Of a DNA stretch of 64,000 bases, positions 1,941 to 44,700 are shown piece by piece. This DNA is from Nemertoderma westbladi (taxonomy: Eukaryota; Animalia; Xenacoelomorpha): contig JAUCBJ010009041.1 in NCBI GenBank assembly GCA_032718475.1, positions 84,124 through 148,123 on the forward strand. Reading direction: 5' to 3'. The position numbers and the translations under genes were made by a program. The notes beneath the pieces are model-generated. The model did not search any database. It was not told where the DNA came from and was given only the letters and a program-made list of their open reading frames with translations. Each line of letters begins with the position of its first letter. The stretch's first letter is position 1.

Positions 1941-2876
1941 TAACAGGTTATAACTGTTATAGTAGGTCATGATTGCATCCAACAGTTATCCAACGGTTAT
2001 CCAACAGAGCAAGCGCCATTTTCATGGCCATGTTAGTTTTCGTGCTGTGCTCCCTTTCGCGCACCCATCTCCAGTACTTTTGTACTAAGATTTTCAATAG
2101 TTTTCATAATTCACTACAATTAATTTATTTGCGATATATAGCGGTTTTTTGGATGCTGAATGCGATTATAGAACTGCAATATGTATAAAAATATATTCGT
2201 GAAATTTTTTCGTAATTTTTAAAGTGTCATCTGGGGTACAAATAAAACAAGTACTGCAAATATGTTAGTCAAAAATCACGTCAAGAGCTTCAGTTCATTC
2301 AAATTTTGCCTCCTTCCTGTTGGTACATGACTTGAATTTGCACAACTCAATGCAATGATGTTGATGTTTGTTTTGTAGGCAGATACAGAGTGAGTACAAA
2401 ACAAAGACTCAACACCCAATTATAAAGAAAAATTCTGGAAACCCAGGAGGAGTTGAGTGAAACTACAGTATATATCGTAGCTTAAGTGTCATAAGAGACG
2501 AGGCCCTAAGTAGATTTTTGTTGGATTTTACTTTTTTATACAATTCCACACTTTAACACATATGCTCTATCAGCTGGTGAAGTTTTGAAAATTGTCTAAT
2601 GTTTATTCTAACTGATAGACGTACTTTAGATACATTGGACAACAATAAATAATATATTTTTTTTACCAGAATATCGTTTTATGATATTGAAATGAAGATG
2701 TATGATATACTATATGACGACATACGATGACATACGATGACATGAGTAGTAGAAGAAACATAGTTCTGAACGAACTCCTCCCTAGCTTGGGCTACGGCTC
2801 GCATCTCGGAGGCAATTAAAAAATGCCAAATTTCTGCGCTAAATCGAGGTGTTTAATGACCATCTGTCACCATCAA

Positions 2877-3045
2877 TATTGATTCGCGTCGTTGCCTTCA
2901 ACCCATCGTTGCTTATCACCTACGCGTAGCCTAACCTCGCGATGCCTGCCTTACTCGACAACTGTTACCACCCGTGAGTATTGATTCGCGTCGTTGCATC
3001 AACCAACCATCGCATATTCATCTTCGCGTAACCTAACTTCTCAAC
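2877..3045. repeat. ~100-bp direct repeat pair, possible subterminal repeats of the element
   Basis: tattgattcgcgtcgttgc...caacc..atcg...cgcgta.cctaac occurs at about 2878 and 2979. Confidence 0.6.
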
Positions 3046-3477
3046 GCATGGCTAGCCCCCACTACGCTATTATATTATATCGAATCGATTGCCAACTCAC
3101 CACCACCGCTACTCCTCGACGGCTGTCGCCAAACCAATCCAGTCCAACGCTATTATGATACGTGTTGAAATTCCGCCACGTTCCACCTACACGTATACGA
3201 ACATTTCCATAGTAGTTACTCAAGCTAACCGATCCCGTAGCATCTGTGCCATATTGAAAGGCTTCCACAGCTAACATTATACTGTACGTTTTTTATTATA
3301 ATAATTATTGATTATTACACACACAACCCTATGATTCATATTCTTTCACGTATTTCCTATCCACGCAATCAACCAGCCAGCTATTCATCCACGTTGCTCC
3401 CCATCTCTTTTCTTATTCGTTGATGATTATGACACGTACCATCTCTTCTTCGTTGACTATGCCACATCGCAAATTTT

Positions 3478-3517
3478 TATATATATAAGTGAATGTTTTT
3501 AATAAAATTCATCACTT
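3478..3517 (+). promoter_or_regulatory. TATA box plus Inr-like element upstream of the PC4-like ORF
   Basis: TATATAAG at 3482 and TCACTT at 3512, 30 nt apart. Confidence 0.4.
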
Positions 3518-3532
3518 GTAATCTTCTTCATG

Positions 3533-3832
3533 GTAATATATTGATACCATATCTAATTTTTTTGTTCTCACTCTGACATTGTGTTTTTTTCCTTAATAAT
3601 TTATACATTATCTTACTCGTTGTATATTCGTTGGTCGGAAAACGACACCTCATAAAATGATACTGATTCCAGCATTGGGTATCGCCTCAAAAACGAAAAT
3701 CTGAGCTACGTGTCTCGCTCAATCTTTGTTTTTGAGTCGATACCTAATGTCGAACTCAGCATCATTTTTCTAAGGCGTCGTCTTCCGACCAAACACAATT
3801 TTAGAGTGAGAACTATGGTGTCAATTTATTAC
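3533..3832. repeat. Long imperfect palindrome (hairpin MITE-like)
   Basis: 3631-3706 is about 80% identical to the reverse complement of 3717-3792, with a 10-nt loop tacgtgtctc. Outer arms gtaatatattgataccata..gttctcactctgacattgtgt pair with acacaattttagagtgagaactatggtgtcaatttattac. Confidence 0.8.
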
Positions 3833-3892
3833 AGCGATACGGTTTAAAATTTATCACTTGTAATATTTTTCGTATTTATTATTATTATTATT

Positions 3893-4960
3893 ATGGCCTT
3901 AACGCAAAAAACCGGAGCAACAAATAGCTGGAAATTTACTTACAATAAATATACTTGTACCGTCGTTCACAGCAAGTATTTTATTGTGGAATCTCAGGAG
4001 GACAACGAATCAATTTGTTTTTCCCATCAAGATACCCGCTATTTGTTAGACATTCTAGAAACAACCAACAACAACAACCAACATCAATCCAGACCAGCAA
4101 TTATACCAGGTAGGATATATCCCACTCCTCGTTTTGCGCGGGGAAATTTGAATATTTCCATCAACCCCACATCGGGTGATGTTTACGTTCAGAAACAAGG
4201 CAAATGTAAAGTTCTCAACAAAGCTTTTACTGAAGTTCTAATTCAATACAGAGGGAAATTATTGCAATTTCTCTCTCCACCGCTAGAGATTATTAGCGAT
4301 CAATTCTACATTGAATTATCAAATCCAGAGTTTATTGGATTTGTAACAGCTTTTAAAGGAACCAACTATGTTGGCTTATGGAAAATCAGCCTCAGATACA
4401 CTGATAGTGTTGGTTTTAACTATTGTACGGGTTTCAATTTGTCAAAACAGGAACTAACTGTTTTGCTGCGAGAGTGGGACAACCAAGTCGCTGAAACAGA
4501 CAAGCATCTTTTTGATAAAAATATCATTCAATTATCAGACCGTCTCAAAATGATTAAAACCAATAATAAAAAAATTATTATCACCAACACCGATAATTCT
4601 ACGGAAGTAGGCGCCGGCGGAAATTCTATCGAGTTGCATTACTTGAATGATAAAGCCCATATTAGTTTTCTCAAAGAATCGCTGGATGGCGTTTCTCTTA
4701 CTGAAGCCCACGTTGACGGCTTTGTCCTTTTGGATAAACCTAAAGCGTTCGTAGAGATCCCATCACCTAATCCGGATGTTGAAGAGAGCTGCTCTCAACC
4801 GCAACAGGTCTTTCCCGAAATATTACCTCGGAAGCCAAGATCATCGAGTAAATTTACCAACACATCACCTGCAAAGAAACAGAAAGTTGTCAGTAACCCA
4901 GTTCTAGTAGAGCCTGTTACTAATTCTCCATGGAAACCAGATTATTATCCTAACATGTAA
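3893..4960 (+). CDS. Element ORF with a PC4/p15-like ssDNA-binding domain and a disordered, NLS-like C-terminus, 355 aa
   Basis: FVTAFKGTNYVGLWK...GFNLSKQELTVLL resembles PC4 (V..FKG..Y.DIR...GISL..EQW..L). PAKKQK lies near the C-terminus. Long intact ORF next to pPolB. Confidence 0.6.
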   Translation: MALTQKTGATNSWKFTYNKYTCTVVHSKYFIVESQEDNESICFSHQDTRYLLDILETTNNNNQHQSRPAIIPGRIYPTPRFARGNLNISINPTSGDVYVQKQGKCKVLNKAFTEVLIQYRGKLLQFLSPPLEIISDQFYIELSNPEFIGFVTAFKGTNYVGLWKISLRYTDSVGFNYCTGFNLSKQELTVLLREWDNQVAETDKHLFDKNIIQLSDRLKMIKTNNKKIIITNTDNSTEVGAGGNSIELHYLNDKAHISFLKESLDGVSLTEAHVDGFVLLDKPKAFVEIPSPNPDVEESCSQPQQVFPEILPRKPRSSSKFTNTSPAKKQKVVSNPVLVEPVTNSPWKPDYYPNM

Positions 4961-5044
4961 GCCTAATCATAAGTTAAACTCTTTGCGGTTTCCAATAGTC
5001 ATAAGCGATTGGTGATTGGTTTAAAATTATTTCCCTTGCTAGCA

Positions 5045-5080
5045 TATAAATGTTTAGATGTAGTCAATATCATATCATTT
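5045..5080 (+). promoter_or_regulatory. TATA box plus Inr-like element upstream of pPolB
   Basis: TATAAA at 5045 and TCATTT at 5075 (30 nt), preceded by CCAAT/ATTGG boxes at about 4992-5019. Confidence 0.45.
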
Positions 5081-5143
5081 CATTTTATTTTAATTTTTGG
5101 AGATATTTTATTATTATTATTATTTATCTAAACAAACTTCAAC

Positions 5144-8100
5144 ATGGATAAAATAACAATATGTTGTTCATTCTGTCATATGAATGTAACTAGACATAAT
5201 TATTTACGCCACCTACGGTCACATTTTGAAGGTTATTCTTGTTTAAAGTGTCATGTCGTGACTTCATGCAGCGAAATTTGTAAACGACATGAAACGACTA
5301 CTGGTTGTAAAGAAATGCAGTTCCGTACCTATCAATTAACTTGTTCTACCTGTAATAAAGAGTATACATATGACGATTATCTACGACACGACTGTCACTT
5401 GAAATGTTACTACACAAGAAAGCGTAAATTTTCGCAACATAAAAATATAATATCCAGAAAAAACTTAAGGGTGGCTCTTGGCACATGCGCAACAATTTTT
5501 ACGAGGGAACAAGAAGCTCACGATAATCGTCTTGAAATTTATGTCCACGACCTCCCAACTTCTAGAGATTATCCCGATGTAGAAACAGCAGTAACACAAA
5601 TTCGAGGTAATATTCTTCAGTTAATATTAGACAGATTGAAAGAAATGAATGTTCTTAGACTGTGGTTAGGTCTAAATGTATTAATGTACAGATCACATTT
5701 TTCACAAGGTGAGCAATTGGAAACCTTTTATTTTAATTCTTCTGGTGGTGCTATTAATACTGTAGATTTGCCGCAAAGTTTTGACACATGGTTTGAGTAT
5801 GTTCTGGAAAATATATTACAAAAAATAGCTATCTTTAACACACGTGGTTCGGGGTGGCGTATTAAATCTTTATTAAGGGTTGAAATTAAATTAGCTGAAT
5901 CTAAGTGTAGGTCGTTACTATATAAGGGGCATGGGTATATGGAATTACCTAAAGCTCTATCAGGTAAACGATGTGTTATAAATGTACAATCGGCTGATAA
6001 TAACTGTTTTAAATGGGCAATTATATCCGCAAAATTTAGTAGCAAAGTGAAAGATCACAAATATCGTACTTCATCGTACAAAAATTATATGAGTCATTTC
6101 ATTTTTGACAATGGGAAAAAAGATTATCCAACGCAGTGGCAGTTAGCTATTAAACTTTTTGAAAAACAAAATTCAAAATATATAATTAATTTATTATGTT
6201 GGAATAACGACAACAAACGCACCCCCGTATCTATATTAAGACAACCTCCGTTTAGTAAAATTACACCTGATAAACAGTTATTAAATATATTACTTGTAGT
6301 AAAAAATAACAATGTACCTAAACAGAATCATTATGTTTGCATAACTAACTTGAATCGATTGCTGAATACGAAAGCTCTTCATATCCAAAATAGGAAATAT
6401 TGCGAAAGGGGTTTGGCTCATTTTTTTCGAGCGGAAGTTCTTCATCAACACCGTCTTGCGTGCTACCAAGGAAGAAGACAGCGTGAGAAACTACCTAATA
6501 AAAAAAGAACACACATTAGTTTTACAAATTTAGATAGAACCTTATCCCCATTGTTTGTCACCTACTTTGATATAGAATGTATCTTACAACCGTCAGTTAA
6601 TAATCAAATTATACAGGAGCATATACCGTGTGCTGTGAGTTATTTAATTGTTCCCAATACTGAATTAATTGATGCTCCAAAATGTCATTTGAAAACATTT
6701 GTAAAGACAAATAATAATAATTGTATTCAAGATTTCTTAGATTCATTATATACTGATATAACTGAATTATGTTGTTGGACAGACATATACACTCATAAAA
6801 CCATGTCATTTACTAATATTGATTTTGTAAATTTTGAACAAGCAAAATTTTGTTTTTATTGTAATGTTACTTTAAATAATAATGTTGGGAAAAACAGACA
6901 CCATTCACATATTACAGGTAAATATATTGCGGCAACCTGTAATAGTTGTAACCGAAGTTTATAATTGAAGCGATACCTGTATGTACTTTGCGGACACAAT
7001 TCCAACAACTATGATATACATTGTATATTACAAAGCGGATTTAGAGATAAGAAATACACTGATTGGGATATAAAGGTTATACCGAGAAATACAGAACGAT
7101 ATATTTCACTGAGTGCCTTTATCCCAATTAAAAACACTTCTAAGAAAATTGAGTTACGTTTCTTAGACACATATCAATTTTTCAGCTTTTCTTTAAGTAA
7201 TTTAGTTGAGTGTTCAACAAAGGATGTAGCCAGTCATGATATAAGCTCAATTTTACCTATTACTCTACAAGAAATGAAATATTTTTATCCAAACTTGAAT
7301 AACTCAACGATTAAACGGAAAGGAGTATTTCCATACGAGTACTTGACAGATATAAATAAATTTAATGATACTGGTTTGCCGTCTATAAATAATTTTTTTA
7401 GTAACTTAAGTCAAAAAACATGCACAATTGAAGATTATAGGTTTGCGGGAATATCATGGGTAGAATTCGACTGTGTGAATCTCAAAGATTATCTTTTAGC
7501 CTATTTAAAACTCGATGTTTGTTTGCTTGCCGATATATTTGAGAATTTTAGGAATGTTTGTAAACAAAATTACGATTTAGAAGCGGTTTTTTACTGCAGT
7601 ATCGCGTCATTTACCTATGATTGCGCACTAAAATATAATAAATGTAAAATAGAATTAATAAAGGATTATCAGACATATAGAGATTTTGAAAAATCAATTA
7701 GGGGTGGTGTTTCATTTTGTCGAAAACATTATATAGAATCAAATATACCAGGTACAAGTACATATGATTCTACTAAGGAAGAATGCCATATTTTTAATAT
7801 TGATTTTAACTCTTTATATTCTGGGAATTTAAGTAAAAAACTACCCACCTCACAATTCAAAGAAGTAAGTATTAAACATTTAGAGAATGCAATACCAGAA
7901 AAACTAATCGAGTACTTGGTAGATTTAGACATTGAGGGATCTACTGGATATTTTTTAATATGTGATTTAAATTATCCCAAGGCTATTCACGATCAAACAT
8001 TACAATTACCGTTAGCCCCCGAGCATTTAAGTATAAATGAATCAATGCTTTCACCTTATATGCGGGAACAATTTAATAACTTGTCTATACAAAGAGATAC

Positions 8101-9202
8101 CTCCCGTAAATATAGAATGTCTATACCAAAACTCATGCTGACACAATTTGATAAAGAGTTTTATCATTTACATTTGAAACTATTAAAATTTTATATAAAA
8201 CATGGATTAATTGTTACTAAACTACATAAATTATATTCTTTTCAACAAGAATTTGTATTTAAAAATTACATCGATTTTAATATTAATCAAAGGCGACTGG
8301 CAAAAAGTTATATTGAAACAGCTGTCGCGAAATTGCTCAATAATTCGCTGTTTGGCAAATCAATAGAGAGGATACGTGACCGATGTAACTTTCGTATCGC
8401 AAATAGCAACGATAAATGCGATCAATTGGTAAATCGTATTAATCATGAACAATTTATAATATACAATAATACACTATCGGGACATTTATTAGTGAAAGAC
8501 TCTGTAACTCTCGATAAGCCTATATTTATTGGTAGCGCTGTGTTGGACTTGGCTAAATTGGATATGTATGATCTGTATTACAATAAATTGCTACCTATTG
8601 AGAAAGAATTAAACTGTCGTATTGAAATTGCTGCATCAGACACTGACTCATTGATAGGTTGTTACTATAATACATCGCAGAATAATTTTTTAAAAGCATT
8701 AATTAAAAATAATATTTTAGATACATCCAATTACCCTAAGGATCACCCGCTCTACAGCGATAAAAATAAATCCAGACTCTATTACTGTAAAGACGAACTA
8801 GCCTCACGTGAAATTAAACAAGCAGTATTTTTAAGACCAAAATTATATTCAATTTTGGAATGGAATAATAAAAATATTCGTAGAGCAAAAGGTATTACAA
8901 GAGCTGTTGTGGAAACGAATATTACACATGAAGAATATTTAAAAGCATATAACTCAAATGAAGAAATAAAAAAAAACATACACAGATTTCAAGCTAAATT
9001 ACATCGTATTTATACCTTAAAGCAAAATAAATTTGCACTCAGTAGCTTTGATGATAAACTTTATTGGCTTAATAAAAATCAATCGCTTCCTTGGGGGCAC
9101 TATAAAACAAACCTCAAAAAACCTATAAAAATATCAAATATACCAATTTATGAAGAACCAAAAGACGACAGTGTTGATGATGAATTATCAAATAGTAAAT
9201 AA
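5144..9202 (+). pseudogene. Protein-primed family B DNA polymerase (Polinton-type pPolB), interrupted by one in-frame TAA at 6962-6964
   Basis: ORFs 5144-6964 and 6965-9202 abut in the same frame. Motifs in order: N-terminal Cys/His zinc fingers, TRGSGW, vOTU-like NNCFKWAI/HYVCI, ExoI YFDIE, inserted EndoVII-like CFYC..RHHSHITGKY..CN, ExoII HNSNNYD, KGVFPYEY, ExoIII YLKLDV.LLADIFENFR, Pol A DFNSLY, Pol B KLLNNSLFGK, Pol C DTDS, LRPKLY, RAKGI. Confidence 0.93.
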
Positions 9203-9731
9203 AAATATAAGTTGTAAGCAGATTATTTATGGACTTAATTTGAAAGAATTAAAAAAGCAATTGAATGGTAAAATTGTACTCAAACCTAATCAGTTTATAT
9301 ATAAGGTATTTGGTGCAACCATATTAATGTTTAGAAACGGACGAATAACAATTCTCGGTAGAAAATATAATTTTAATAAAGTGAAAAAACATATATTAGA
9401 AAAAACAAACATTAATTTGATTTTTAAATCAATCAATTTGTGTACTTATATTTTTAGTATCGATACTGTAATTTATAGGTTACTTATAAATAATATCGGG
9501 TTTTATGTTATATTTGATAATGTTAAACTAGAAATTTCATACGACCCTGAAATATTCAATAACTGTAAAGTCAGAATAAATAATATTGTTGTTGTTTGCT
9601 GTTTCTACACTGGTAAATGTACATTAATGTGTTCCCCGTTTAAATTTCATATATATTATCCTATTTTCAACAAGCTGGTTAATAATTTATTATTGTTTGG
9701 TGTGGGGGTTTTTGATGTAAAATATAATTAG
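9150..9731 (+). CDS. TATA-box-binding-protein (TBP)-like protein; probable start 9177 or 9180; overlaps the pPolB stop
   Basis: Two TBP core repeats: QIVN..LNLKEL..KPNQF...ATILMFRNGRITILG and SINL...YDPEIF...VCCFYTGKCTLM (compare YEPELF...LLIFVSGKVVLTG). About 185 aa, the size of the TBP core. Confidence 0.8.
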   Translation: MKNQKTTVLMMNYQIVNKNISCKQIIYGLNLKELKKQLNGKIVLKPNQFIYKVFGATILMFRNGRITILGRKYNFNKVKKHILEKTNINLIFKSINLCTYIFSIDTVIYRLLINNIGFYVIFDNVKLEISYDPEIFNNCKVRINNIVVVCCFYTGKCTLMCSPFKFHIYYPIFNKLVNNLLLFGVGVFDVKYN

Positions 9732-10082
9732 TACCGGTACGAGTGAAATTTATTGTTGTTGTTGTTGCTGTTTGGTGGTGGTGGAGATTTTTACTGTAAA
9801 ATATATATATTAAATTGAAGGGAGAAGAAATTTATGAATATTTTTTTAAAATCAACAACTAGTTTGAGGAGGGAAATTAACTTCAGTAGTACGATTGTTT
9901 CTTGTAACACTCAAGTAGGCATAGTATACTCAGCAGCCGCGGCTAGCTAACTTGGCATTGTTGCTCACGAGTGAGCCACAATAGCGCATCTGTTACTTAT
10001 GAGTGTGCGTGTGTACAGCAGGCAACGCTAAGCTCGGTGAGAAAAGATTAGGGGTATGTGCTGATATTCATAGTCAAAGACG

Positions 10083-10844
10083 ATGCCATCCTATCTGTTA
10101 CTAGTCTGTATACCGGTACATATCATTAAAACATCCGCTATGCATCTCCCTACATTCAGAATAGAACAACGACCAGAGCATATATCGGTAATCCGCATGG
10201 GAAAGGTTTATGTTATGCATTTTGTTAACTATGAGAATTTTGTAATGTACACATCTGCGACCCTCTACAAAAATATATATAAACTCAATTTTTCTGACAG
10301 TGAACTATAATTTTGTTAAACAAAAGAAGAAAAAAATATCAGTAGGCCTACCTATTCAATTTAAAGATACTCTTTCCGGTGCCTAGTTACTACGACAACG
10401 ATAACTTACCTCAATACGAACATGACATTCGCCTTTTTCAATAACCGTGAGTTGACGAGTTGTATCAAAATCGAATTGCAATCAAGCGACGAAACATATC
10501 TCACAGCATCCAATATTGCTGAGATGGAGTTGCGATATATAAACAAAAAATTTGAGATCGGGTTTACTTCGATGGAATATGGAGTAGGTCAAGTAGGTGG
10601 TCTACATTTATCGCCTACAACGCTTGAAATTTCAAAAGATTTCTCGCTTGTTATAAAAATACAACCATCGCGAATATCGGGAAGCTCACCCTCTTGCGAA
10701 AATTGGGAGAATGATGTTGATGACTCGCTTCACTTCAATATACCAACACAAAGACCGGTAGAAGTTAGCCAGCCTATAAACAACCATTTACAGGTACCGG
10801 CAAGGGAGGAAACTCTACAGAGTGACCCGCATATAGGACTATAA
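10083..10844 (+). pseudogene. Degraded element ORF of unknown function (two same-frame pieces, 10083-10310 and 10422-10844)
   Basis: Both ORFs are in the same frame, separated by ~110 bp containing stops. No recognisable domain. Confidence 0.4.
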
Positions 10845-11015
10845 AAGGTATAGCCTAATACAGTAATAAATTTAGGGTTGTTGTTATTGTTATTGTTAGG
10901 CCTATCAGTTATTGTTGCTTATAAAACTTAGTAGACCGAATCTATTTTATATATAATTAAAAAAAAAAAAGCGAATACATAAATAAATTAACTATGTTTT
11001 ATATAGGCCTCCGTC

Positions 11016-11275
11016 AACATAGAGTGAATGTTAGTAACAGAGAATGTGGTGGATTTTATATAGGCTTAGTTAGGTATACTGCGGGCCACACCTATTGTAT
11101 CTGCGTGGAGCCATTATATGACTGGTTGAATGATGGGGTTCCTGACTAAAAGTTAACGGTATAGCATACAACATAAAGTGAATGTTGAAAGTTAGTAACA
11201 GAGAGTGTGAGGGGATTTTATAGGTCCAATAGCGCTACCGGTACCTAACTACACCTATTGTGTCTGTGAGGTAGT
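11016..11275. repeat. ~155-bp tandem duplication containing minus-strand TATA boxes
   Basis: aacata.agtgaatgtt..agtaacagaga.tgtg...ggattttata..gg...acacctattgt.tctg.g occurs at about 11016 and 11170. Confidence 0.6.
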
Positions 11276-11803
11276 CAGCTTTCAGTTGAGGAGTAGTCAT
11301 TAGGCCTATATGCCTAACTGAATGAAGGTGTACCTTACCTATCCGTAAACCATATTGAGTCAACATGCGAAAAAGGGCCCCGCATAAAGTTAACTATAGC
11401 TGTATAGGCTTACCTATGCAACAGTAGCACGCAGTAATGTAGATTAGACCAATTAAAGTTGTAAACAGAAAATTGGAAGCATTCAAGTGTAATAGCCTAA
11501 TCCTTAAATCAAAGAAACCAGCATGCTCTTGCACTATCCAAGTATACAGGTACAAGAGTGCTACCGTGCCGGTACCAGTAGGCCTATTGTTAGGTAGGCC
11601 TCCTCTAATGCTGTATTCACGAACCCACATGTCGACTTAATTTAATTTTATTATTAGTAAGTACAGTACCGGTAACGCTAAAGCTCTGTGGTTGCTGTCG
11701 GGGGCCATTCTGTCGTTCTACAGTTTAGCGTTGTTGGCATATGTAGTTAAACTCTGATACAACCGCCGGCTACCGGTAGGTGCAGGGTGTGTGTGAGGGT
11801 GTG

Positions 11804-11916
<113 letters not shown>

Positions 11917-12039
11917 CTTAAGTCCTACACCTTTAGTCAAACTGAGATATAAAAAATAGATTTTAATGTTTTTATTATTTTATTGACATTAAAACAATTA
12001 TATTATCCCATCACATTACATTACATGCTTAGAGTAAAC

Positions 12040-12636
12040 CTACAGTACATCTTCCACCGCAGTTATTTCTTTCTGTTTATCATCATCAGTCGCAGTTAAA
12101 CGCTTTCTCATGAAAAAGTGTAGAGCCTCATACCCGCCAACACGTTTTGCTGAGCAGTATCGCAGACAGTTATCCCTTATGTTTAAGTGGAACGCGCATT
12201 TACTTTCCATTGTAGTGAATCGGTCGTGAAATCGACAAGGTGTTAAATAATCGTGATATTGCTTATATATTCCCAATTTCTCCACCAAATTTGGCTCGAG
12301 AACATCGAGTTGGGAAACTAATATTGCCCGTTTCAGCAACCCAAATACATGAATATTTTTTTTATATTTTAAATGTCTCTTCATATATTTTTTAAAGTCA
12401 TCTTGAGAAATGTCCCCGTAGTCCCAGGGCAAGTGAGAAGTCATATCCCGTAAATTGTTTACGTGAGCTGCATCTAAAGCTGATAACTTAATATTAGACG
12501 GGCCTTTAATTAAAAACGTCTTTACATTAGTTTTGGTGTAATTAGAATCGTATATTGCAAATTCTTTAAATACTACCGTATACTCTTTATTGTCTATCTT
12601 ATAATATTGAAAATCAACAAAAATAATATTATCCAT
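12040..12636 (-). CDS. Maelstrom-like / DEDD (DnaQ)-fold nuclease-like protein of Polinton type, 198 aa
   Basis: IIFVDFQYY...VFKEFAI...SHLPWDYG...IHVFGLLK...CAFH...YCSAKRV has the E...CxxH...C (ECHC) layout and TH.LP-like motif of MAEL domains. It matches the VDxQGF..KELA..HGLxWxxG..YVKG pattern of Polinton accessory ORFs. Confidence 0.7.
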   Translation of the reverse strand: MDNIIFVDFQYYKIDNKEYTVVFKEFAIYDSNYTKTNVKTFLIKGPSNIKLSALDAAHVNNLRDMTSHLPWDYGDISQDDFKKYMKRHLKYKKNIHVFGLLKRAILVSQLDVLEPNLVEKLGIYKQYHDYLTPCRFHDRFTTMESKCAFHLNIRDNCLRYCSAKRVGGYEALHFFMRKRLTATDDDKQKEITAVEDVL

Positions 12637-12779
12637 TTTATCTGATAAACAAAAGTTAAATAATTAATTACAAAGTTTGTTGGTTTAATTTATAATAATT
12701 AACAAGCCATTTATATAATATAACTTCATTGATTTCTTTTTTTTAAATTTTTTTCAAATTTTTTATTTTTTTCGAATTC

Positions 12780-14510: not shown

Positions 14511-16265
14511 TCAGTCGGTGGGTTCATCGAAGATAGATAGAACATTCAACCCGGAGTGGTCTAGGTTAATCCGGTCCAACACACCGCACCGATGGTCCTT
14601 AATATACAGGAAGAATAGAACGATAGCGTGGAATATCGCGTCCCTGCTGGGGCCTAGGTCGAAGGTGCGGCGTTCCAGAACCAGCTGGAACCTCGGCGGA
14701 AACGAGTGGCTCTGGTAGATAACCATCTGGTTCTCAGAGTCCCCGCAAGGCGGCTTCATAGGCGACTTGACAACGTAATTCTGGGAGAATGAGTTCTTGT
14801 GCTCTGGGTTGAATACCATTCGGGAGTCCATATAGCAGCAGAACATGTGAAGGACGATATCCGAGTCGGTGGGGAGACTGTCCTTAGAGTTGGAGGGGTA
14901 ATCCTCGTCGTTCGTGTTAAATTCAGCTAAACAGCCGCCCTTAGCTAGGAGAGAGATGCGTTTAACTAGGTAGTCTTGGTTCGGTGATAGTTCGAGGTAG
15001 GGGATGAGTTGGGATAACTTCGGGATGTGTCTAGTGGATAGAATCCGCAGCGATGCCAACGAGGCTAATCCCAGTCGGCCTTCTAGCATCCCCAGTCGCA
15101 GAAGGTGCTCGTTAACTTCGGAGAAAGCCGAGTCGATTCGGTGGAAGATTGTGGCGGCCAACCACATCCGGAGACGACCGGACCAGAGCGAGAGAAGTGA
15201 CGGGGTTGTCTGGAAGTAGGCGAGTAGAGCGGTGTTCGCGGAAAGTCGTCCCGGGGATCGGTTAGTGGTGGGAGCTGGGGTCGAAGGAGATGGTTGGTAA
15301 ATGGACCGGGAGAGGGAGGGCAGTAGGTCCCACCACGAACGGGCGCAGCTCCACAGGGAAGGACGGAAGGACTGGTCGGTGGGTCGGAAGGAAGGGGGAC
15401 GGTAGAGGGAGTCGTAGGGAGAATGGTCGGCGTAGCCGCTGGTGTAGAGGGGGGAGGGGGCGGGGAAAGAAGAGGGAGAACCGTGGAGGGGAGGGGAGCA
15501 GGTGTGGAACAGGTTGGGTGAGAGAATGGATGAAGAGATAGGAGTTTGTTGGGAGTAAGAGTGGTCCAGGGAGGTGTGTTTAATTAGGGAGTTAGCTAGG
15601 AACGTTCTAGAAGGGGAAATGGAGGGGCGGCGGGCTGGGGATGGAGTTCTTCGGTTCCCCGGATAAAATATAGAACCCGCAGATCCCGGACTGTAGTGGT
15701 TGAGAGTCGAGAAACTTTGGTTGAAGTAGGAAGATCGTTCGTGAATCAATCCGGTGAGGCCAGGGGTGCTGATGCTGTGGGAGAGATAGAAGTTGTCCCG
15801 TTGGTAGGGAGGCGGAGTTAGGTATGAGTTTGTGGAGGATCTGCGGGGCGGGGTGGACAGGGAGAACTCTACGGGTGGTTGCGGAGAGTCGGAACGGGAC
15901 GGCTGGCGCTTATTAGCAACCGTGTTCCCCGTAATTCCACGCAGAACGGCCCACATCTTGGCGAATCTAACGAACCACACGCTGCTGTTCAGGAGGAAGA
16001 CGACCGCTATTGCGCTCTCGAGAAGAGTCACAGCGTGCCAATAGCCGAAACCGAGAAAATTACACAGGGAGATCTCTAGGAGGAATACAATAGCTAGTAG
16101 AAGGTTGAGAGACCCCCAGCCCAACGCCCAAGCCTGATTGCGCCTCGCAAAGTGTTTCTCGAATATGTAAGAAATGTAGGGGCTGTGCAATGCCCCGGCA
16201 GATTTACGTTTCACGTTATCTCCGCTACCGGTAGACATATTATAGTCGAAGGACACATCCATCAT
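14511..16265 (-). CDS. TMEM209: Transmembrane protein 209 (nuclear envelope; CytochromB561_N family), single coding exon, 584 aa
   Basis: Two N-terminal TM helices, an S/P-rich linker, then LRMWLAATI, LIPYLELSPNQDYLVKRISLLAKGGCLAEF, LPTDSDIVLHMFCCYMDSRM and INLDHSGLNVLSIF, all matching TMEM209 blocks. Confidence 0.9.
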   Translation of the reverse strand: MMDVSFDYNMSTGSGDNVKRKSAGALHSPYISYIFEKHFARRNQAWALGWGSLNLLLAIVFLLEISLCNFLGFGYWHAVTLLESAIAVVFLLNSSVWFVRFAKMWAVLRGITGNTVANKRQPSRSDSPQPPVEFSLSTPPRRSSTNSYLTPPPYQRDNFYLSHSISTPGLTGLIHERSSYFNQSFSTLNHYSPGSAGSIFYPGNRRTPSPARRPSISPSRTFLANSLIKHTSLDHSYSQQTPISSSILSPNLFHTCSPPLHGSPSSFPAPSPLYTSGYADHSPYDSLYRPPSFRPTDQSFRPSLWSCARSWWDLLPSLSRSIYQPSPSTPAPTTNRSPGRLSANTALLAYFQTTPSLLSLWSGRLRMWLAATIFHRIDSAFSEVNEHLLRLGMLEGRLGLASLASLRILSTRHIPKLSQLIPYLELSPNQDYLVKRISLLAKGGCLAEFNTNDEDYPSNSKDSLPTDSDIVLHMFCCYMDSRMVFNPEHKNSFSQNYVVKSPMKPPCGDSENQMVIYQSHSFPPRFQLVLERRTFDLGPSRDAIFHAIVLFFLYIKDHRCGVLDRINLDHSGLNVLSIFDEPTD

Positions 16266-20250: not shown

Positions 20251-21177
20251 ATGTTGTGTGAGGTAAACGAGTTATACGGGGGACGTTTCCTAGCGCTATG
20301 GGCAACCCTCACGGTGGGTGCGCTATCGATGCTATTGGTGATGTCCGGCACTCTATTCTGGAAGTATTACGTCAACGCATCCTACCAATCCTGGCGATAC
20401 AAATCCAACCCCAAGTACCCACCGGTGGAGAAAATCCGCGACGAGATAATTACAATGTGTAAAGGGTTAATGGCGGCGACGCTATGTCCCACCGCTGCTA
20501 TATATATGTGTAACCCGGGATATTCCAAAGCCTATTGCGGTGTAGATAAATACGGTTGGCCGTATCTCATAGGTACCTTCTTTTTCTGCTGGTGCCTTTC
20601 GGATTTCCTAGAGTTCTTCTACCATCGCCTCGGCCATATCTACGACAGCCTCTGGAACATCCACAAGTTCCACCACGTATTCTACAATCCTTCACCGTTC
20701 TCTGTTATTGCCGATGAATATTTAGATCAGTTGGTCCGAGCCTCTCCCATTCTCATATATCCTCTCATCTTCCCAGTTAACATCGACATGCTTTTCCTTC
20801 AGTTCGCGGCGTTTTTCTACGCGTACGGCGTTTACCTCCACTCGGGCCACGAGCTCGACTACCCCGACGCCCATCACCCGTGGATAAACACCGCCTTCCA
20901 ACACTACCTACATCACGCCAAGTCCATCAAGAATAAACCCTACCATACCGGCTTTATGATAAAGTTGTGGGATAATTTGTTCGGTTCGATCTATCAGGGA
21001 GATTGCTTCTGCAGTAAATGCTCCCGAGAGAGCGGCGCTCGCTCAGTGGAGGAGTGGGAGAAAGTTGAGAAACAGGATTACTCGCCGCTCTTGGATTTGG
21101 AGTTTTGGTGGACCGGCCAGACGAGAGAAACTCGTAAGCTCACTCAAGGGAAAACCATCAGTTTTGCGCCAATGTAA
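20251..21177 (+). CDS. Sterol desaturase / fatty-acid hydroxylase superfamily protein (ERG3/ERG25-like), about 308 aa
   Basis: Histidine boxes HRLGH, HKFHH and HSGH...HYLHH, the G....LWD.LFGS motif, and hydrophobic segments. First in-frame ATG is at 20251. Confidence 0.88.
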   Translation: MLCEVNELYGGRFLALWATLTVGALSMLLVMSGTLFWKYYVNASYQSWRYKSNPKYPPVEKIRDEIITMCKGLMAATLCPTAAIYMCNPGYSKAYCGVDKYGWPYLIGTFFFCWCLSDFLEFFYHRLGHIYDSLWNIHKFHHVFYNPSPFSVIADEYLDQLVRASPILIYPLIFPVNIDMLFLQFAAFFYAYGVYLHSGHELDYPDAHHPWINTAFQHYLHHAKSIKNKPYHTGFMIKLWDNLFGSIYQGDCFCSKCSRESGARSVEEWEKVEKQDYSPLLDLEFWWTGQTRETRKLTQGKTISFAPM

Positions 21178-24190: not shown

Positions 24191-25197
24191 TAGGAGGTAA
24201 TGGTGCCAGACTAATAAGCCAGCTTGCTTATTGTTTATCTCGCAGAATGATTGGCTGAGTATTTAATCGTGATTCTTCTTAATAATTAGCTAAATAATTT
24301 CGTTGAGGTGTTGGTTGACATGAAAAAATTAATATTTCAGAATCAATACTATTGGCATAAAGTAGGTTTTAGTATTACTTACAATTAATGTCGCCTCCAC
24401 GCCTAAAATATATTTAATCTATTTAAATTAAAACACTAATTTCCTGTTAATACCTCTGCCTTGCATCAATCGTCTGCGCGCCTTTGGGATGCGGTTGTGC
24501 AGATTAAGAGGGCGGTTGAAGGGGGAACTTTCCCCTCTACTTTAATTATTGGCATCCCTAAATTTTAATCTGTATCACATAACTGAGCCTCGTGCTGCGC
24601 GAAGGCCCCATGAACATATTACGGTAGTATAATGATGCAAGTACTACACAATACTACAGGACTGGAATACTGCCTGATCCAACTGCGCTAGCGAAAACCA
24701 TTCAGTTCCCGGTTTGCGTTTAATTTTCGGTATTATAATAATAACTCTAGGGTGGGGAATATCGCGTCGGCAATCTTACAGTAATAAATAATGTCAAATT
24801 CATATATTCATATATATGTATACGAATATGTAATTAAATATTGTTTGGAATTAAACATTATTTATTAATGTTATTTTTTTCTTCTTATTTTAATATAAAC
24901 TCAAAACCAAATTTAATACATTCTGAACGTATATGGAGATAATAAAGATATAAAATATCGAATCAAAAGATGACAATAATTACCATAAAGTTTACGGTAC
25001 AAAGTTTATATATTTATTAATGTTGCTCATTATTATTGTTAATTGCTATATACTGTACTTATATTTTGAATTATTTATATAAACGCTGGATAGAAGACAA
25101 ACCTGTATTATTGTTCAAGGCAGAGACAATATTATTGTACATATTAATTCGGTATTTAGGTAGCCGGTAAACTTTTGTTAACAATTCCGGCGTGGCG

Positions 25198-26562
25198 ATG
25201 ATGAGCAGGAAAAATAACGAAAGTTTCCTCCGCTCTACTCGAGTCGGCAATATTGACAAAGTTATTGAATTTTTGAACAACGGAATTGACATAAATACAT
25301 GCAATGAGAATGGTCTGAGTGCCCTTCACATCGCCTCTATAAAGGGACATAACCACGTTGTAAACGAGTTGATTAATCGCAACGCGAGTATCAACTTGAC
25401 GACCAGGAAAGGCAACACAGCTCTTCATGTCTCCTCAATAGCAGGGCATCATTCAATAGTTAAAGCGCTGGTGAACGCGAATGCCAATGTGAATATTCAG
25501 ACGCTGAAAGGGTTCACCCCATTGTACATGGCGGCTCAGGAGAACCACAGTTCAGTGGTTCAGTTATTACTGCAGCACAACGCTAGTCAGACTATTGCAA
25601 CCACAGACGGGTTCACGCCTTTAGCAGTGGCGCTTCAGGAAGGACACCACAATATTGTGGCTGTTCTACTAGAGAATGACACACGGGGTAAACTAAAGTT
25701 GCCCGCATTACATGTGGCGGCTCGTAGAAATCACAGCAAGGCGGCGGAGTTGCTTCTTGTAAACGGACACGATCCAAACCTCACGTACAAGGGTGGCGTT
25801 ACTCCGCTTCACGTTGCAGCTCATTATGGTAACGCGAGCGTGGGTTTGTTGCTACAGCAACACGGCGCAAACGTAGATTGCATCGATCGCAATGGAATTA
25901 CACCGCTACACGTTGCCGGAAAGATGGGTCGTATAGCCATGGTAACACTCCTTCTAGATAAAGGCGCTTCTATAGAGTTGGCAACCAAGGATGGTCTGTC
26001 TCCCTTACATTGTGCCGCTCGGACTGGCCAAGATACTGTTGTAGATCTCCTATTGGATAGTCGGTGTAGAATAGCCCCGAAGACAAAGAACAGACTAACC
26101 CCATTACACATGGCAGCTCAAGGGGACCACGTTGTCTCAGCTAGACTTCTTCTGCACCACAAGGCGCCAGTAGATGACGTGACCGCCGAATATCTAACTC
26201 CTTTACACGTGTCGGCCTACTGCGGGAGCCTTAGGGTCGCCAAGTTACTCCTCGAACACGGAGCGACGCCTGATCCGCGTACGATGAACGGGTATACGCC
26301 ACTCCACATAGCCTGCGAGAAGAATAGCATTCAGGTTATTGAGTTGTTGCTACGATACGGTTCAAACATCATGCTATCCACGTCGTCTGGTTGGTCGGCG
26401 CTACACTTGGCTTGTTTTATGGGTCACGACGATGTGATTAAAGTTCTATTGGAGAACAAAGCGGATATCAAGCATATGAACGACCTCGGAGAGACACCGT
26501 TAGATCTGGCACGGCACGCAACCGCAGTGGAGTTATTGTTAGACAACGGAGCCAATCCTTAG
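25198..26562 (+). CDS. Intronless truncated canonical-ankyrin (ANK1/2/3-type) copy, about 14 ankyrin repeats only, about 454 aa
   Basis: [62 protein letters not shown] and [16 protein letters not shown] match the canonical ankyrin membrane-binding domain. Stop at 26560-26562 and AATAAA at about 26640. Confidence 0.88.
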
Positions 26563-38700: not shown

Positions 38701-41700
38701 AACGCCAGCCGCCACAGGAGACAAGTGAGCTAGCCATGGTTGAACGCCGGACGCCACGCGAGACAAAGTGAGATGACCAGAGCTGAACGCCGGCAGCCAC
38801 GGGAGATAAAGTGAGCTGGCCAGGGTTGAACGCCAGCTGCTACGGGAGAAAAGTGGGCTGGCCAGACCTGAACGCTGGCCGCCACGGGAGACAAAGTGAC
38901 ATTGCCAGGGCTGAACGCCAGCCACCACAGGAGACAAAGTGAGCTGGCCAGGGTTGAACGCCGGCCGCCACGGGAGACAAAGTGAGATGGCCAGAGCTGA
39001 ACGCCGGCCACCCCAGGAGACAAAGTGAGCTGGCCAGGGTTGAACGCCGGCAGCCACGGGAGATAAAGTGAGCTGGCCAGGGCTGAATGTCATTCGCCAC
39101 AGGAGACAAAGTGAGCTGGCCAGGGCTGAACGGCCGCCACAGCAGACAAAGTGAGCTGGCCAGGGCTGAACGGTCGCCACGGGAGACAAAGTGAGCTGGC
39201 CAGGGCTGAATGGCCGCAATGGGAGACAAAGTGAGATGGCTGGGGCTGAACGCCGGCCGCCATGGGAGACAAAGTGAGCTGGCCAGAGCTGAACGCCGGG
39301 CCACCACGGGAGACAAAGTGAGCTGGCCAGGGCTGAATGGCCGCCACGGGAGACAAAGTGAGCTGGCCAGGGTTGAACGCCGGCCGCCATGGGAGACAAA
39401 GTGAGCTGGCCAGGGCTGAACGCCGGGCCACCACGGGAGACAAAGTGAGCTGGCCAGAGCTGAACGCCGGCCACCACGGGAGACAAAGTGAGATTGCCAG
39501 GGCTGAACGCCGGCCGCCACCGGAGACAAAATGAGCTGGCTGGGGCTGAACGCCGGCCGCCATGGGAGACAAAGTGAGCTGGCCAGGGTTGAACATCGGC
39601 CGCCACAGGAGACAAAGTGAGCTGGCTAGAGCTGAACGCCGGCCGCCATGGGAAACAAAGAGATATTGCAAGGGTTGAACGCCAGCCGCCACAGGAGACA
39701 AGTGAGCTAGCCATGGTTGAACGCCGGACGCCACGCGAGACAAAGTGAGATGACCAGAGCTGAACGCCGGCAGCCACGGGAGATAAAGTGAGCTGGCCAG
39801 GGTTGAACGCCAGCTGCTACGGGAGACAAAGTGAGCTGGCCAGACCTGAACGCCGGCCGCCACGGGAGACAAAGTGAGATTGCCAGGGCTGAACGCCAGC
39901 CACCACAAGAGACAAAGTGAGCTGGCCAGGGTTGAACGCCGGCCGCCACGGGAGACAAAGTGAGATGGCCAGAGCTGAACGCCGGCCACCCCAGGAGACA
40001 AAGTGAGCTGGCCAGGGTTGAACGCCGGCAGCCACGGGAGATAAAGTGAGCTGGCCAGGGCTGAATGTCATTCGCCACAGGAGACAAAGTGAGCTGGCCA
40101 GGGCTGAACGGCCGCCACAGCAGACAAAGTGAGCTGGCCAGGGCTGAACGGTCGCCACGGGAGACAAAGTGAGCTGGCCAGGGCTGAATGGCCGCAATGG
40201 GAGACAAAGTGAGATGGCTGGGGCTGAACGCCGGCCGCCATGGGAGACAAAGTGAGCTGGCCAGAGCTGAATGCCGGGCCACCACGGGAGACAAAGTGAG
40301 CTGGCCAGGGCTGAATGGCCGCCACGGGAGACAAAGTGAGCTGGCCAGGGTTGAACGCCGGCCGCCATGGGAGACAAAGTGAGCTGGCCAGAGCTGAACG
40401 CCGGGCCACCACGGGAGACAAAGTGAGCTGGCCAGAGCTGAACGCCGGCCACCACGGGAGACAAAGTGAGATTGCCAGGGCTGAACGCCGGCCGCCACAG
40501 GAGACAAAATGAGCTGGCTGGGGCTGAACGCCGGCCGCCATGGGAGACAAAGAGAGCTGGCCAGGGTTGAACATCGGCCGCCACAGGAGACAAGTGAGCT
40601 AGCCATGGTTGAACGCCGGACGCCACGCGAGACAAAGTGAGATGACCAGAGCTGAACGCCGGACGCCACGGGAGACAAAGTGACCTGGCCAGAGCTGAAC
40701 AGCCGCCACAGGATATAAAGTGAGCTGGCCAGGGCTGAACGGCCGCCATGGGAGACAAAGTGAGCTGGCCAGGGCTGAGCGGCCGCCATGGGAGACAAAG
40801 TGAGCTGGCCATGGCTGAACGGCCGCCACGGGAGACAAAGAGAGCTGGCCAGGGCTGAACGGCCGCCACGGGAGACAAAGAGAGCAGACCAGGGCTGAAC
40901 GGTCGACACAGGAGACAAAGTGAGATGGCCAGGGCTGAATGGCCGCCACAGGAGACAAAGTGAGCTGGCCAGGGTTGAACGGCCGCCACGGGAGACAAAG
41001 TGAGCTGGAGAGGGCTGAACGCCGGCCACCTCGGGAGACAAAATGAGCTGGTCAGGCCTGAACGGTTGCAACGGGAGGCAAAGTGACCTGGCCAGGGCTG
41101 AACGGCCGCCACAGGAAACAAAGTGAGCTGGCCAGGGCTGAACGGCCGCCACGGGAGATGGCCAGTGCTGAACGGCCACCACGGGAGACAAAGTGAGCTG
41201 GCCAGGGTTGTCATTCAAGATTGACTCAAAACATAGACCTGGCAAGGAGGTGCGTACCCTGGAGACGACCCCCCGCCCACGCACACCCCAGATAACATTT
41301 AAAAATAGAAACATTTTGTAAAATAGCTAAACTAACGAATACTCTTCGATATTTCTACAATACTGATCAATACTATTGTGGCATTATCATTGCAGTGAAG
41401 AAAATAAAGTGAAAAAGAAAATATAGAGAAAATATTGTAACTTATTAAAGATCTTATTTACATATTAAATATTAATTAACATTTAATAATTATTCTAGTT
41501 ATTAGAAGACTCACCGAGCTGCACCAGTGGTTGTCATGGCAATTATAGAAGCATTTGCCATAATTTCCTTATGTTCCTGCATTTGGACTTCTGCTTTTTG
41601 TTTCGCGAGGTTGTTATATTCGGTTTCAAGGTCTTCGAGTTTCTCAAGTTCTGGAGTTCGCAACTTTCCCAACCAATACCTACAGATTATATTAACTAAA

Positions 41701-44700
41701 TTTATGTGTATTACTTATTAAAAAGCAGAAGCATTAAAAGCATGTCCAATAATAAAGCGAGTGGATTAGATGAAATCCCAGCGGAGGTATGGATAACCGG
41801 AGTGCTAAACAGACCATTATTGAATGTTTGCAACCGGATGTTAAAAGGGGAAAAGCCACCACCAATTTGGACTAAAGGTCAACTAAAGCCTCTCCCCAAG
41901 AAAGGAGACCTAGGCATACCAACAAACTATCGTGGGATCTGTCTGCTTGTGGTAGCTGCCAAAATATACAATAAAATGATTCTATATAGGATTAGGCCTC
42001 ACATAGAGAAACTACTGCGTAAGAGCCAAAACGGATTTCGACCAAATAGATCAACAATAGCTCAGATACTTGCACTACGGAGACTGATTGAAGGAATTAA
42101 GTCAAAGAATCTCCCTGCAGTCATGACTTTTGTGGACTTCAAGAAAGCATTCGACTCCATCCATAGAGGTAAAATGCTTGAAATCCTAAGAGCTTATGGA
42201 ATACCAGAAGTAATTGTTGCTGGCATTGGATTGTTATATTGTGACACAGAAGCTCAGGTACTCTCACCAGATAGTGAAACTGAGTTTTTCTCAATCCTGG
42301 CTGGCGTACTGCAAGGTGACACATTAGCACCATTACTATTTGTAATTGTGCTGGATTATGCAATGAGGACGGCCACAAAGGGTGAAGATCTGGGATTCAC
42401 ACTTCAAGAACGCAGAAGTAGTAGATATCCGGCAACTACAGTCACAGACACCGACTTTGCGGATGACATCGCCCTGTTCTCTAATACGCTTCTAGCAGAT
42501 GCACAGCTTCTACTGAATAAAGTGGAGAGGGATAAAGTGGAGTTTGAATGCATATAAATGCTACCAAGACCGAATTCATGACCTTTAATGTTGATGGAAA
42601 CTTGACAACCATTGATAATAATCAACTAAGGAAGGTCGACGACTTTCAGTACCTTGGATCATGGATAGAGAGTAGCAAAAAGGACATAGAAGTTAGGAAT
42701 GCAAAGGCTTGAGTAGCACTATCAAAAATGGATACCATCTGGAAATCAGATCTCTCAAGGCACATGAAGACTAAGTTCTTTCGAGCCACAGTGGAAGGTG
42801 TACTTTTATGCGGGGGTGAGACTTGGACACTGACGAAATCACTTGAACACAGAATTGATGGTTGCTACACAAGACTACTAAGGGCAGCCCTAAACATCAG
42901 AGCTGGAGACAACACATAAAAACGCCGAGTTCTATGTTACAATATCACCTGTATCAACCACCCTCCGTGAACGCAGATTAAGATTCAGACGGCACTGCTG
43001 GAGAAGTAAAGAGGAGGTCATACCAGATCTACTTTTCTGTCAACCAACACATATGTGTCTGTCCGAATTCGCTCGACCTATTAGTAGTTATTGCTGCAAT
43101 TAATTATGAAAGGGAGATAATTCCGACAAAATATATTAAAATACAATAAAAATTTGCGTATATGCGTATATTAATTAACTAATTAACAATATAATTTCCT
43201 TGGTTGAGCTAAATGCCCCTACCTGTACAGTCGTTTTCTATCCTGCACCGTTAGATTCCAAACAGATACAACTCGTTTCGCCTCTTCTTCCTCCATTGCT
43301 CGTCCTCGCCTCCCTAACGTGTCCTTCAACTTCTGATTTAACTTTTTCTTATCAATTACAATTTGCCAACCATCGTCATCGGGTTGTACTTTTACTGATT
43401 TGTAATCGAATGATACATCACATTGGGTATTGTAGTGTATAAACCCGGGTTTGATTAGTTCCATAATCTCTGGGGCTCTTTCATTGGCTGCAAGCACTGC
43501 GTCTGACTCAATATAAAAGTCTGGCAAACTGTCATTGCCTGTATCTCCACTTCCATTTACTACCTGAAAATCGTAACATAAAGTACTGATACACTATTAT
43601 TGTTAATATTCAATAATGCAAGCAAAGGAGAACCGAACCATACATGAATCAAATATGCATTTTTATTCTAAAATTATGAAACGACTGCTGATGACAACTA
43701 TTGTTGAAAAATGATTCTTTGATTTTTGGTACGATGGAACGGTGGACTTACTGTAATAAAAATATCTAAATTTCGTTGAGAAATAAAGATATAAATTCAA
43801 ATTTGTAATCCAATCATTCCAAAACAAACTGAAATGTTTTTTATTAACTGTCTATAATTCCATGGTAAACTGAAGATCAGAACGATCAAGTACGTATTGC
43901 ACTTATGATAAGTTAATGCATTGCATTTATTGAGAGCACAGGATACAATACAATGCGTTTTTCCGACCGGCAAACAGCAAAGGGTGATGGTAAAGTAAAG
44001 TAAAGTAAAAGTAAATTTTCTTCGGCCGCTAGGCCTGGGATTACGCACAACGTCTGACGACTTATTTCCAGCGCGGTCCACCCAGAACTTTACTCCCCAG
44101 AGGAATCTCCAGTACTCATTTAGCTACCACTTAAGGATGCAAGGCAGAGATGCAACCTGGCTGGTCCCTTTAAAGCATTCGTGCCGAAAAGAAAAATGCC
44201 CTGGCCCATGTGAGGAACGAACCCACGACCTACAGGAGATGTGAATTCAATGCAACCACTACACCAAGCTGGAACCTTAATGGAGTAATTATTGCATCTA
44301 TATTTGCTTCAAATAGCGTGGAAAGATAATTTGGATAGCTGAATTTCAATGCCACATATAAGTCACTCAGGATGCGATTCTCATTGTCAATAATTAAAAT
44401 ATAATATATAATAATATATATTTAATAAATATATATATAATATATAATTTCATCACACAACAAAACGATATTTCGCCCAACGTGGGGATCGAACCCACAA
44501 CCTTGGGATTAAGAGTCCCACGCTCTACCGATTGAGCTAGCCAGGCTGAAATAACACCGTTACGATGAAATGCGGCCGTGTTACGATTCACCGACGATCT
44601 TTCTACATTATAACCTGATACATTCAGGCCGTCAAAGGATCTCCCGCCCCTCCCGAAAAGATCCAAAAGATTTGTTGCAACAATACAAGAATTACAAGTA

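Follow-up and report, generated by a model that had tools for sequence, protein, structure and literature searches.

A TATA-binding protein homologue carried by Polinton-type elements lacks one of the four DNA-intercalating phenylalanines and keeps the acidic stirrup

An open reading frame at positions 9150..9731 (+) of a 64,000-nt stretch of Nemertoderma westbladi DNA, referred to below as the window, raises the question of whether mobile elements encode a TATA-binding protein (TBP), and what use such a protein might be to them. The frame spans 193 aa counted from the first ATG, and further in-frame ATGs are found at 9177 and 9180, immediately 5' of the core. No pyrimidine-rich splice acceptor was found 5' of the core, nor any joint in the aligned contigs. 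The first-pass annotation described an element-encoded TBP retaining all four DNA-intercalating phenylalanines; the ORF and each of the motifs quoted (KPNQF, LMFRNG, YDPEIF, CFYTGK, IVN and INL) are found where they had been placed.

Homology to TBP is confirmed by Pfam and by structure. The ORF matches PF00352 in two stretches (E 4.8e-6, 26.7 bits, curated cut-off 22.9 bits); its N and C halves match the family separately as well, both below the cut-off (E 0.0038 and 0.013). A model based on a 20-row alignment (pLDDT 73, pTM 0.61; 85-94 in the N-lobe core, 63-72 in the C-lobe) shows the saddle fold for which the annotation had suggested to look, and TBPs rank first in two fold searches. All Foldseek matches listed with E<=0.001 are TBPs, as are the best 38 found by VIA (top Z 11.4, rmsd 4.5, 162 aligned residues), the first non-TBP scoring Z 7.5. 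TM values range from 0.48 to 0.61, and giant-virus TBPs are among the viral structural neighbours (BFVD, E down to 4e-7). A match of 0.94 to TBP clusters of the Atlas is weak, its recognition value being low, and the model built from the single sequence is poor and uninformative (pLDDT 33.6). The sequence by itself retrieves little: as a single query it found no homologue among PDB sequences, 0 of 135 candidates in a word-index search, 0 matches in 1.84 billion representatives, and none in viral contigs or in prokaryote genomes with a relative. The ORF genuinely encodes a TBP homologue with two lobes. It shares the saddle with the cellular proteins (PF00352; yeast 1ytb/1tbp, human 1cdw/7egb_P, archaeal 2z8u/1ais), from which element TBPs differ in being 15-20% identical, encoded by mobile elements and devoid of an N-terminal tail.

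Yeast TBP kinks TATA DNA by means of F99, F116, F190 and F207, N69 and N159 lying at the centre. Phe or Asn had been assigned by eye to all six positions. Yeast numbers were taken here from the alignment of a family profile to PDB sequences, and residues were counted in 20 element TBPs. Four assignments hold: N17 corresponds to N69 (Asn in 20/20), F61 to F116 (Phe in 18/20), F136 to F190 and F152 to F207 (Phe in 20/20 each). The claim that all four phenylalanines are kept does not, as three are kept and F99 is missing in 20/20 element TBPs. F49 of KPNQF, taken for F99, lies 12 residues from F61, vs. 17 between F99 and F116. Of the five alignments listed between the N-lobe profile and solved TBPs, two place its column at V102 and three, all with a single Pyrococcus protein, at I103, and none places it at F99; in a MAFFT alignment with three archaeal TBPs F49 lies at the I103 position, the archaeal Phe facing a gap. 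The column is made up of F 2, L 11, V 6 and I 1 (n=20), and the F99 site is occupied by an invariant Pro or by the preceding Lys/Arg. Strand boundaries of the model alone do not fix the register of the hairpin; the hydrophobic residues at 49 and 51, followed by Lys/Arg at 52 in 15/20 proteins, favour the equivalence of F49 with V102, which would point into the core, and K52 is likely R105. The N-lobe stirrup and hairpin (K45-F61, 9282..9332, +) are shortened relative to cellular TBP, F49 falling at V102/I103, and hold no F99 equivalent. The four-phenylalanine motif is an artefact of alignment by eye, KPNQF resembling archaeal PEQF.

The Asn pair is a mixed case. N17 stands, whereas the assignment of N96 (INL) to N159 is unsupported: MAFFT puts T99 at that site, HMMER aligns the stretch differently and with low confidence, and the final model shares the MAFFT alignment, hence is no independent check of the register. 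The column found by MAFFT at the N159 site is T 10, N 6, S 4 (n=20), mostly T/S in place of the cellular Asn.

The C-lobe stirrup, from YDPEIF to F152, G155 and K156 (9540..9617, +), is well preserved in its acidic pair, D132/E134 corresponding by sequence comparison to E186/E188. E188 is kept in 20/20 element TBPs and the E186 site is acidic in 18/20. Acidic positions of this type are described as TFIIB contacts in part of PMC7221094, and YDPEIF, the presumptive TFIIB-binding stirrup, is the best-conserved surface patch of the family by residue counts. N69, F116, F190, F207 and the acidic stirrup are features held in common by cellular and element TBPs. Within the family, the window protein has diverged most (end branch 3.66, best identity 24%), and has lost P191 and G216.

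The family was assembled from 82 loci with related protein-primed family B DNA polymerase (pPolB) genes, 1755 ORFs of which were searched with the window TBP. Seven matched at E<0.001 in the first round, and repeated rounds settled at 14 ORFs, one in each of 14/82 loci, all above the PF00352 cut-off; one more candidate, in L034, failed the cut-off. The profile of the family matches 35 solved sequences, all TBPs by name or TBP-containing constructs (best E 3e-28), and seven further database proteins, five of which were added to the set (P0122 duplicates L064, P0128 is partial). All eight long TBP loci carry an rve+chromo integrase, and several also carry ATPase, PLA2-like and protein-X-like genes, as do alpha adintoviruses and animal Polintons-Mavericks, with which a PF03175-type pPolB is shared as well. 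Because of these genes, the element TBP is regarded as cargo of Polinton-type elements. Further genes of the TBP loci are presumably capsid, protease and nuclease genes, labels for which Pfam support is weak. No TFIIB was matched by Pfam in 118 ORFs of the eight long loci, a scan which omits pPolB ORFs and six ORFs with ambiguous letters, and by which a divergent TFIIB would be missed.

Some peculiarities of these loci may be mentioned. In L028, L030, L032, L035 and L043 the upstream gene overlaps the TBP gene by ~100-145 codons in another frame. A GTAAG splice-donor-like end lies over the stop codon of the window ORF starting at 3893 (4957) and of the small genes 5' of TBP in L028 (3631), L030 (7454) and L032 (2458); in the last three loci a strong acceptor is found 5' of TBP, out of phase with the GTAAG donor of the upstream gene. 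A 'PC4-like' label, considered for the ORF at 3893 and for the family found upstream of group A TBPs, has no support in Pfam and profile searches. KilA-N genes reside in group B elements (L010:11783-12640, L064:6804-7889). L070, L074 and L075 represent a Polinton lineage without TBP, in which pPolB is followed by an ORF judged by eye to be kinase-like, and by other genes.

Element TBPs are under purifying selection. dN/dS is 0.09-0.27 in 9/9 pairs of related TBPs, though some dS values are near saturation. Among the host copies, one divergent contig differs at 54 positions in 289 gap-free nt; third codon positions take 19 of the 29 differences listed (p 4e-4), 13/24 touched codons are synonymous vs. 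a fraction of 0.19 expected, and none of the 29 creates a stop. The description of the ORF as an element-encoded TBP is supported, the protein having the TBP fold, evolving under selection and having relatives in integrase-bearing Polintons. That the protein is a decaying passenger or a retrocopy of host TBP with no role for the element is scarcely credible: a stop in the window pPolB, the absence of virion genes from this copy and a very long TBP branch would fit, but selection acts among relatives and host copies alike, the nearest sequences are Polinton TBPs, a single-sequence search gave no cellular TBP, and for the family as a whole this reading is already largely refuted.

The TBP gene has been inherited together with pPolB. 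In a FastTree phylogeny of pPolB, from which 3/82 loci aligned over <280 residues were excluded, one clade (66/80 rows, SH 100) unites the window with all 14 TBP loci; within it the window pPolB splits off deepest, on a long branch. Two TBP groups, A and B, match two pPolB subclades, their own supports being modest (89/88 and 82/86). The TBP tree, which includes three haloarchaeal rows and no eukaryotic one, cannot name a donor. Where at least 6 kb 3' of pPolB are available, TBP is present in 8/8 loci within the clade and in 0/4 outside, the latter representing two lineages; no TBP was found in six in-clade loci with 2-6 kb of such sequence. In the window the TBP ORF overlaps the end of pPolB (9202) by 53 nt, as noted at first pass. 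The coupled expression deduced from this does not extend to the family: 0/14 related TBP genes touch pPolB, gaps ranging from 640 to 8967 nt. The overlap is a local arrangement, as TBP and pPolB lie no less than 640 nt apart in every relative.

The TBP frame of the window lies in a repeated, incomplete element (2745..12700, limits approximate). Contig depth rises at 2730-2847 and stays high to 11700, with a dip at 10531-10920; the repeated stretch, which starts near 2.8 kb and reaches at least 11.7 kb, was seen in three sequencing runs of one organism, and covered at low depth in one run of a second. Summed contig depth in one run is 150,000-360,000 across the greater part of the element vs. 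2,400-8,800 in quiet flank bins, figures which are not copy numbers, and many variant contigs cover the stretch. A AGTAGTAG motif at 2745, close to the depth rise, is taken by us to be a Polinton-like terminus; an inverted counterpart to the left end was not found within the 64-kb window. The pPolB gene (5144..9202, +) is a single frame interrupted once, by a stop codon at 6962-6964. A direct Pfam search of its product gave no match; its best homologues are 33-41% identical, many being annotated PF03175, and it groups with integrase-bearing elements. A 355-aa ORF (3893..4960, +) without match in Pfam and profile searches and a 140-aa orphan (10422..10844, +), within the high-depth stretch, belong to the element too. 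A 198-aa ORF (12040..12636, -), one of 549 window ORFs compared, is kin to a small gene, presumably DEDD-nuclease-like, found in TBP-bearing Polintons (E 3e-5). Unlike its Polinton relatives, the window copy lacks integrase and virion genes: no integrase, ATPase, protease or capsid remnants were detected by tblastn of the window or by family profiles over 1-25 kb. It is a fragment or reduced derivative of a Polinton in which the TBP frame is intact.

Sequences upstream of the genes of the family were screened for all 6-mers at -100..-15 (85 nt) from start codons. TTAAGC ranks first in group A (23/63 windows, vs. 1/45 in group B), ATAAAC in group B (23/45, vs. 1/63 in group A). The maxima obtained by dinucleotide shuffling are 6 and 8, and the counts on the opposite strand 1 and 2, respectively. 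Sites lie mostly 35-60 nt, overall 22-97 nt, 5' of the ATG, and precede non-virion genes as well as virion genes. The words were spotted by eye first and counted afterwards, and kinship inflates the counts, as L028, L030 and L032, which are closely related, contribute 20/23 TTAAGC windows; neither word occurs in the 17 windows of the group A loci L035 and L052. In 30 windows of TBP-less loci no 6-mer survives correction, ATAAAC being present in 4/30 (shuffle maximum 4). The type of word co-varies with the type of TBP, as it does with everything else that is co-inherited. The five window ORFs feature no clear common word, ATAAAC preceding one of them, at 96 nt.

Taken with the residue map, these words slightly favour the view that the element TBP is a promoter-selecting factor, which would read a lineage-specific TATA-like word and recruit host TFIIB and RNA polymerase II. 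F116 and the C-lobe, with its F190/F207 pair and E186/E188 stirrup, would grip the minor groove and dock host TFIIB, wedge pair and stirrup taking the 5' half of the word; the remodelled N-lobe, devoid of F99, would tolerate a G/C-ending 3' half such as that of TTAAGC or ATAAAC, words to which host TBP would bind poorly. The N-lobe is assigned to the G/C end because in TBP-TATA structures this lobe reads the 3' end of the box. Promoter selection by the element TBP would in turn activate the integrase gene and those for packaging and the virion. In the window copy such a pathway probably does not operate, since pPolB has a stop and no target genes lie nearby. That the entire Polinton clade uses a private promoter code is conceivable, at somewhat less than even chances: a TBP with a rebuilt N-lobe lacking F99 would have co-evolved with a short word other than TATA, TTAAGC in one branch and ATAAAC in another, would have retained the stirrup for host TFIIB, and would act as a one-protein orthogonal switch of RNA polymerase II initiation, the missing late-gene activator of these elements.

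Viral systems offer partial parallels. According to sections of PMC12529657, KSHV ORF24, the late TBP mimic of beta/gamma-herpesviruses, aims host RNA polymerase II at a variant TATT box by means of a TBP fold, and serves here as a working analogy. The same sections indicate differences: ORF24 has all four Phe and both Asn, whereas element TBPs lack F99; it is a 752-aa multi-domain protein acting in a viral complex, whereas the element TBP is a bare core; and its model is incompatible with the binding of TFIIB, the stirrup for which is kept in element TBPs. Nucleocytoviricota also encode TBP-fold proteins, several being structural neighbours of the window TBP. Portions of PMC7221094 describe them as paired with a viral TFIIB and lacking the host-adapter signature, and indicate that the host-TFIIB signature has been lost from other viral TBPs. 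In the eight long TBP-bearing Polinton loci, by contrast, neither a TFIIB nor any polymerase subunit was detected.

The first-pass annotation left two options, a functional TATA-binding factor and a dominant-negative mimic of host TBP. A functional promoter-binding factor appears more likely than a mimic, its probable targets being variant words and not the canonical TATA box. A decoy would bind host TFIIB through the kept stirrup and DNA weakly, damping host transcription; the TFIIB stirrup is indeed the best-kept patch, F99 is lost and N159 often lost. Yet a pure decoy has no need of N69, F116, F190 and F207 on the DNA face, kept in 18-20/20 proteins, nor of upstream words specific to the TBP subfamily, and we consider it rather unlikely.

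It is unlikely, too, that the protein is, as the first-pass annotation chiefly read it, a spare canonical TBP acting on ordinary TATA boxes, the words being read by another factor. Three Phe and N69 are kept, ATAAAC is frequently found within TATAAAC, TATAAA-type hexamers lie 5' of several window ORFs, and in the I103 register, should it be correct, F49 might point towards DNA. The loss of F99 in 20/20 proteins argues against this, as does the lack of enrichment of TATAAA in the window element (17 on the + strand vs. 16 on the - strand in 10.3 kb). Two TATAAAA hexamer matches at 9101 and 9124 (9101..9130, +), inside the end of pPolB, form a candidate promoter of the TBP gene, though not above chance in DNA this AT-rich.

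The promoter-selecting factor favoured above would work with host TFIIB. Its partner might instead be an unrecognised TFIIB-like protein of the element, or the words might be read by the machinery of a helper virus. TTAAG contains TAAG, the late motif of baculoviruses, and many ORFs of the TBP loci have no function label; co-evolution of viral TBP-TFIIB pairs is reported in part of PMC7221094. With 0 TFIIB matches in 118 ORFs and a host-type E186/E188 pair, however, such arrangements look improbable.

A replication or packaging helper for pPolB, bending or binding DNA at element ends or in single-stranded intermediates, is a very doubtful alternative. TBP is always co-inherited with pPolB, which it overlaps in the window, and a portion of PMC12209930 reports that Giardia TBP, without three Phe, prefers single-stranded DNA; but the overlap is missing in 14/14 relatives, and neither the kept acidic TFIIB pair nor strand-specific words 22-97 nt 5' of start codons are explained.

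To our knowledge, Polintons have no RNA polymerase. The activation of their virion genes becomes testable, a single TBP of 170-190 aa and the matching promoter word being available in two natural subfamilies. If promoter selection holds true, a TBP devoid of F99 is still able to choose promoters, and the elements are a source of small orthogonal TBP-promoter pairs. The correction of the four-phenylalanine claim matters in its own right.

Viral TBPs are already known from giant viruses and herpesviruses, as parts of PMC7221094 and PMC12529657 indicate. In the literature searched, the only trace of a TBP in a Polinton-like element is a label in a figure legend of Starrett et al. 2021 (PMC8502044; preprint 10.1101/697771), in the parts of these sources covered; figures, supplements and Repbase may annotate the gene. 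Neither TBP nor TATA is mentioned in the main text of PMC11131425, PMC10748475, 10.64898/2026.06.19.733378 and 10.1101/2022.05.25.493380, or in one supplement of PMC8502044. New here are the loss of F99 across the family with the TFIIB stirrup kept, and the occurrence of two subfamilies with two words.

Other features of the window deserve mention. Near its left end the element features a 76-nt direct repeat (2877-2951 and 2979-3053). An imperfect palindrome of 250 nt (3564-3813; DNA fold -58 kcal/mol, z -12) lies just 5' of the ORF at 3893, is flanked by a 27-nt direct repeat (3503-3529 and 3845-3871), and may be an insertion, an origin or a control element. Long uninterrupted ORFs of host type are found at 14511-16265 (-; PF09786), 20251-21177 (+; fatty acid hydroxylase family) and 25171-26562 (+; ankyrin repeats). 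A ZNFX1-like helicase gene spans 30302-60140 (-), its introns being full of long minisatellite arrays; a reverse transcriptase fragment resides at 41700-42557 (+), and a tRNA-Lys gene at 44474-44546 (-).
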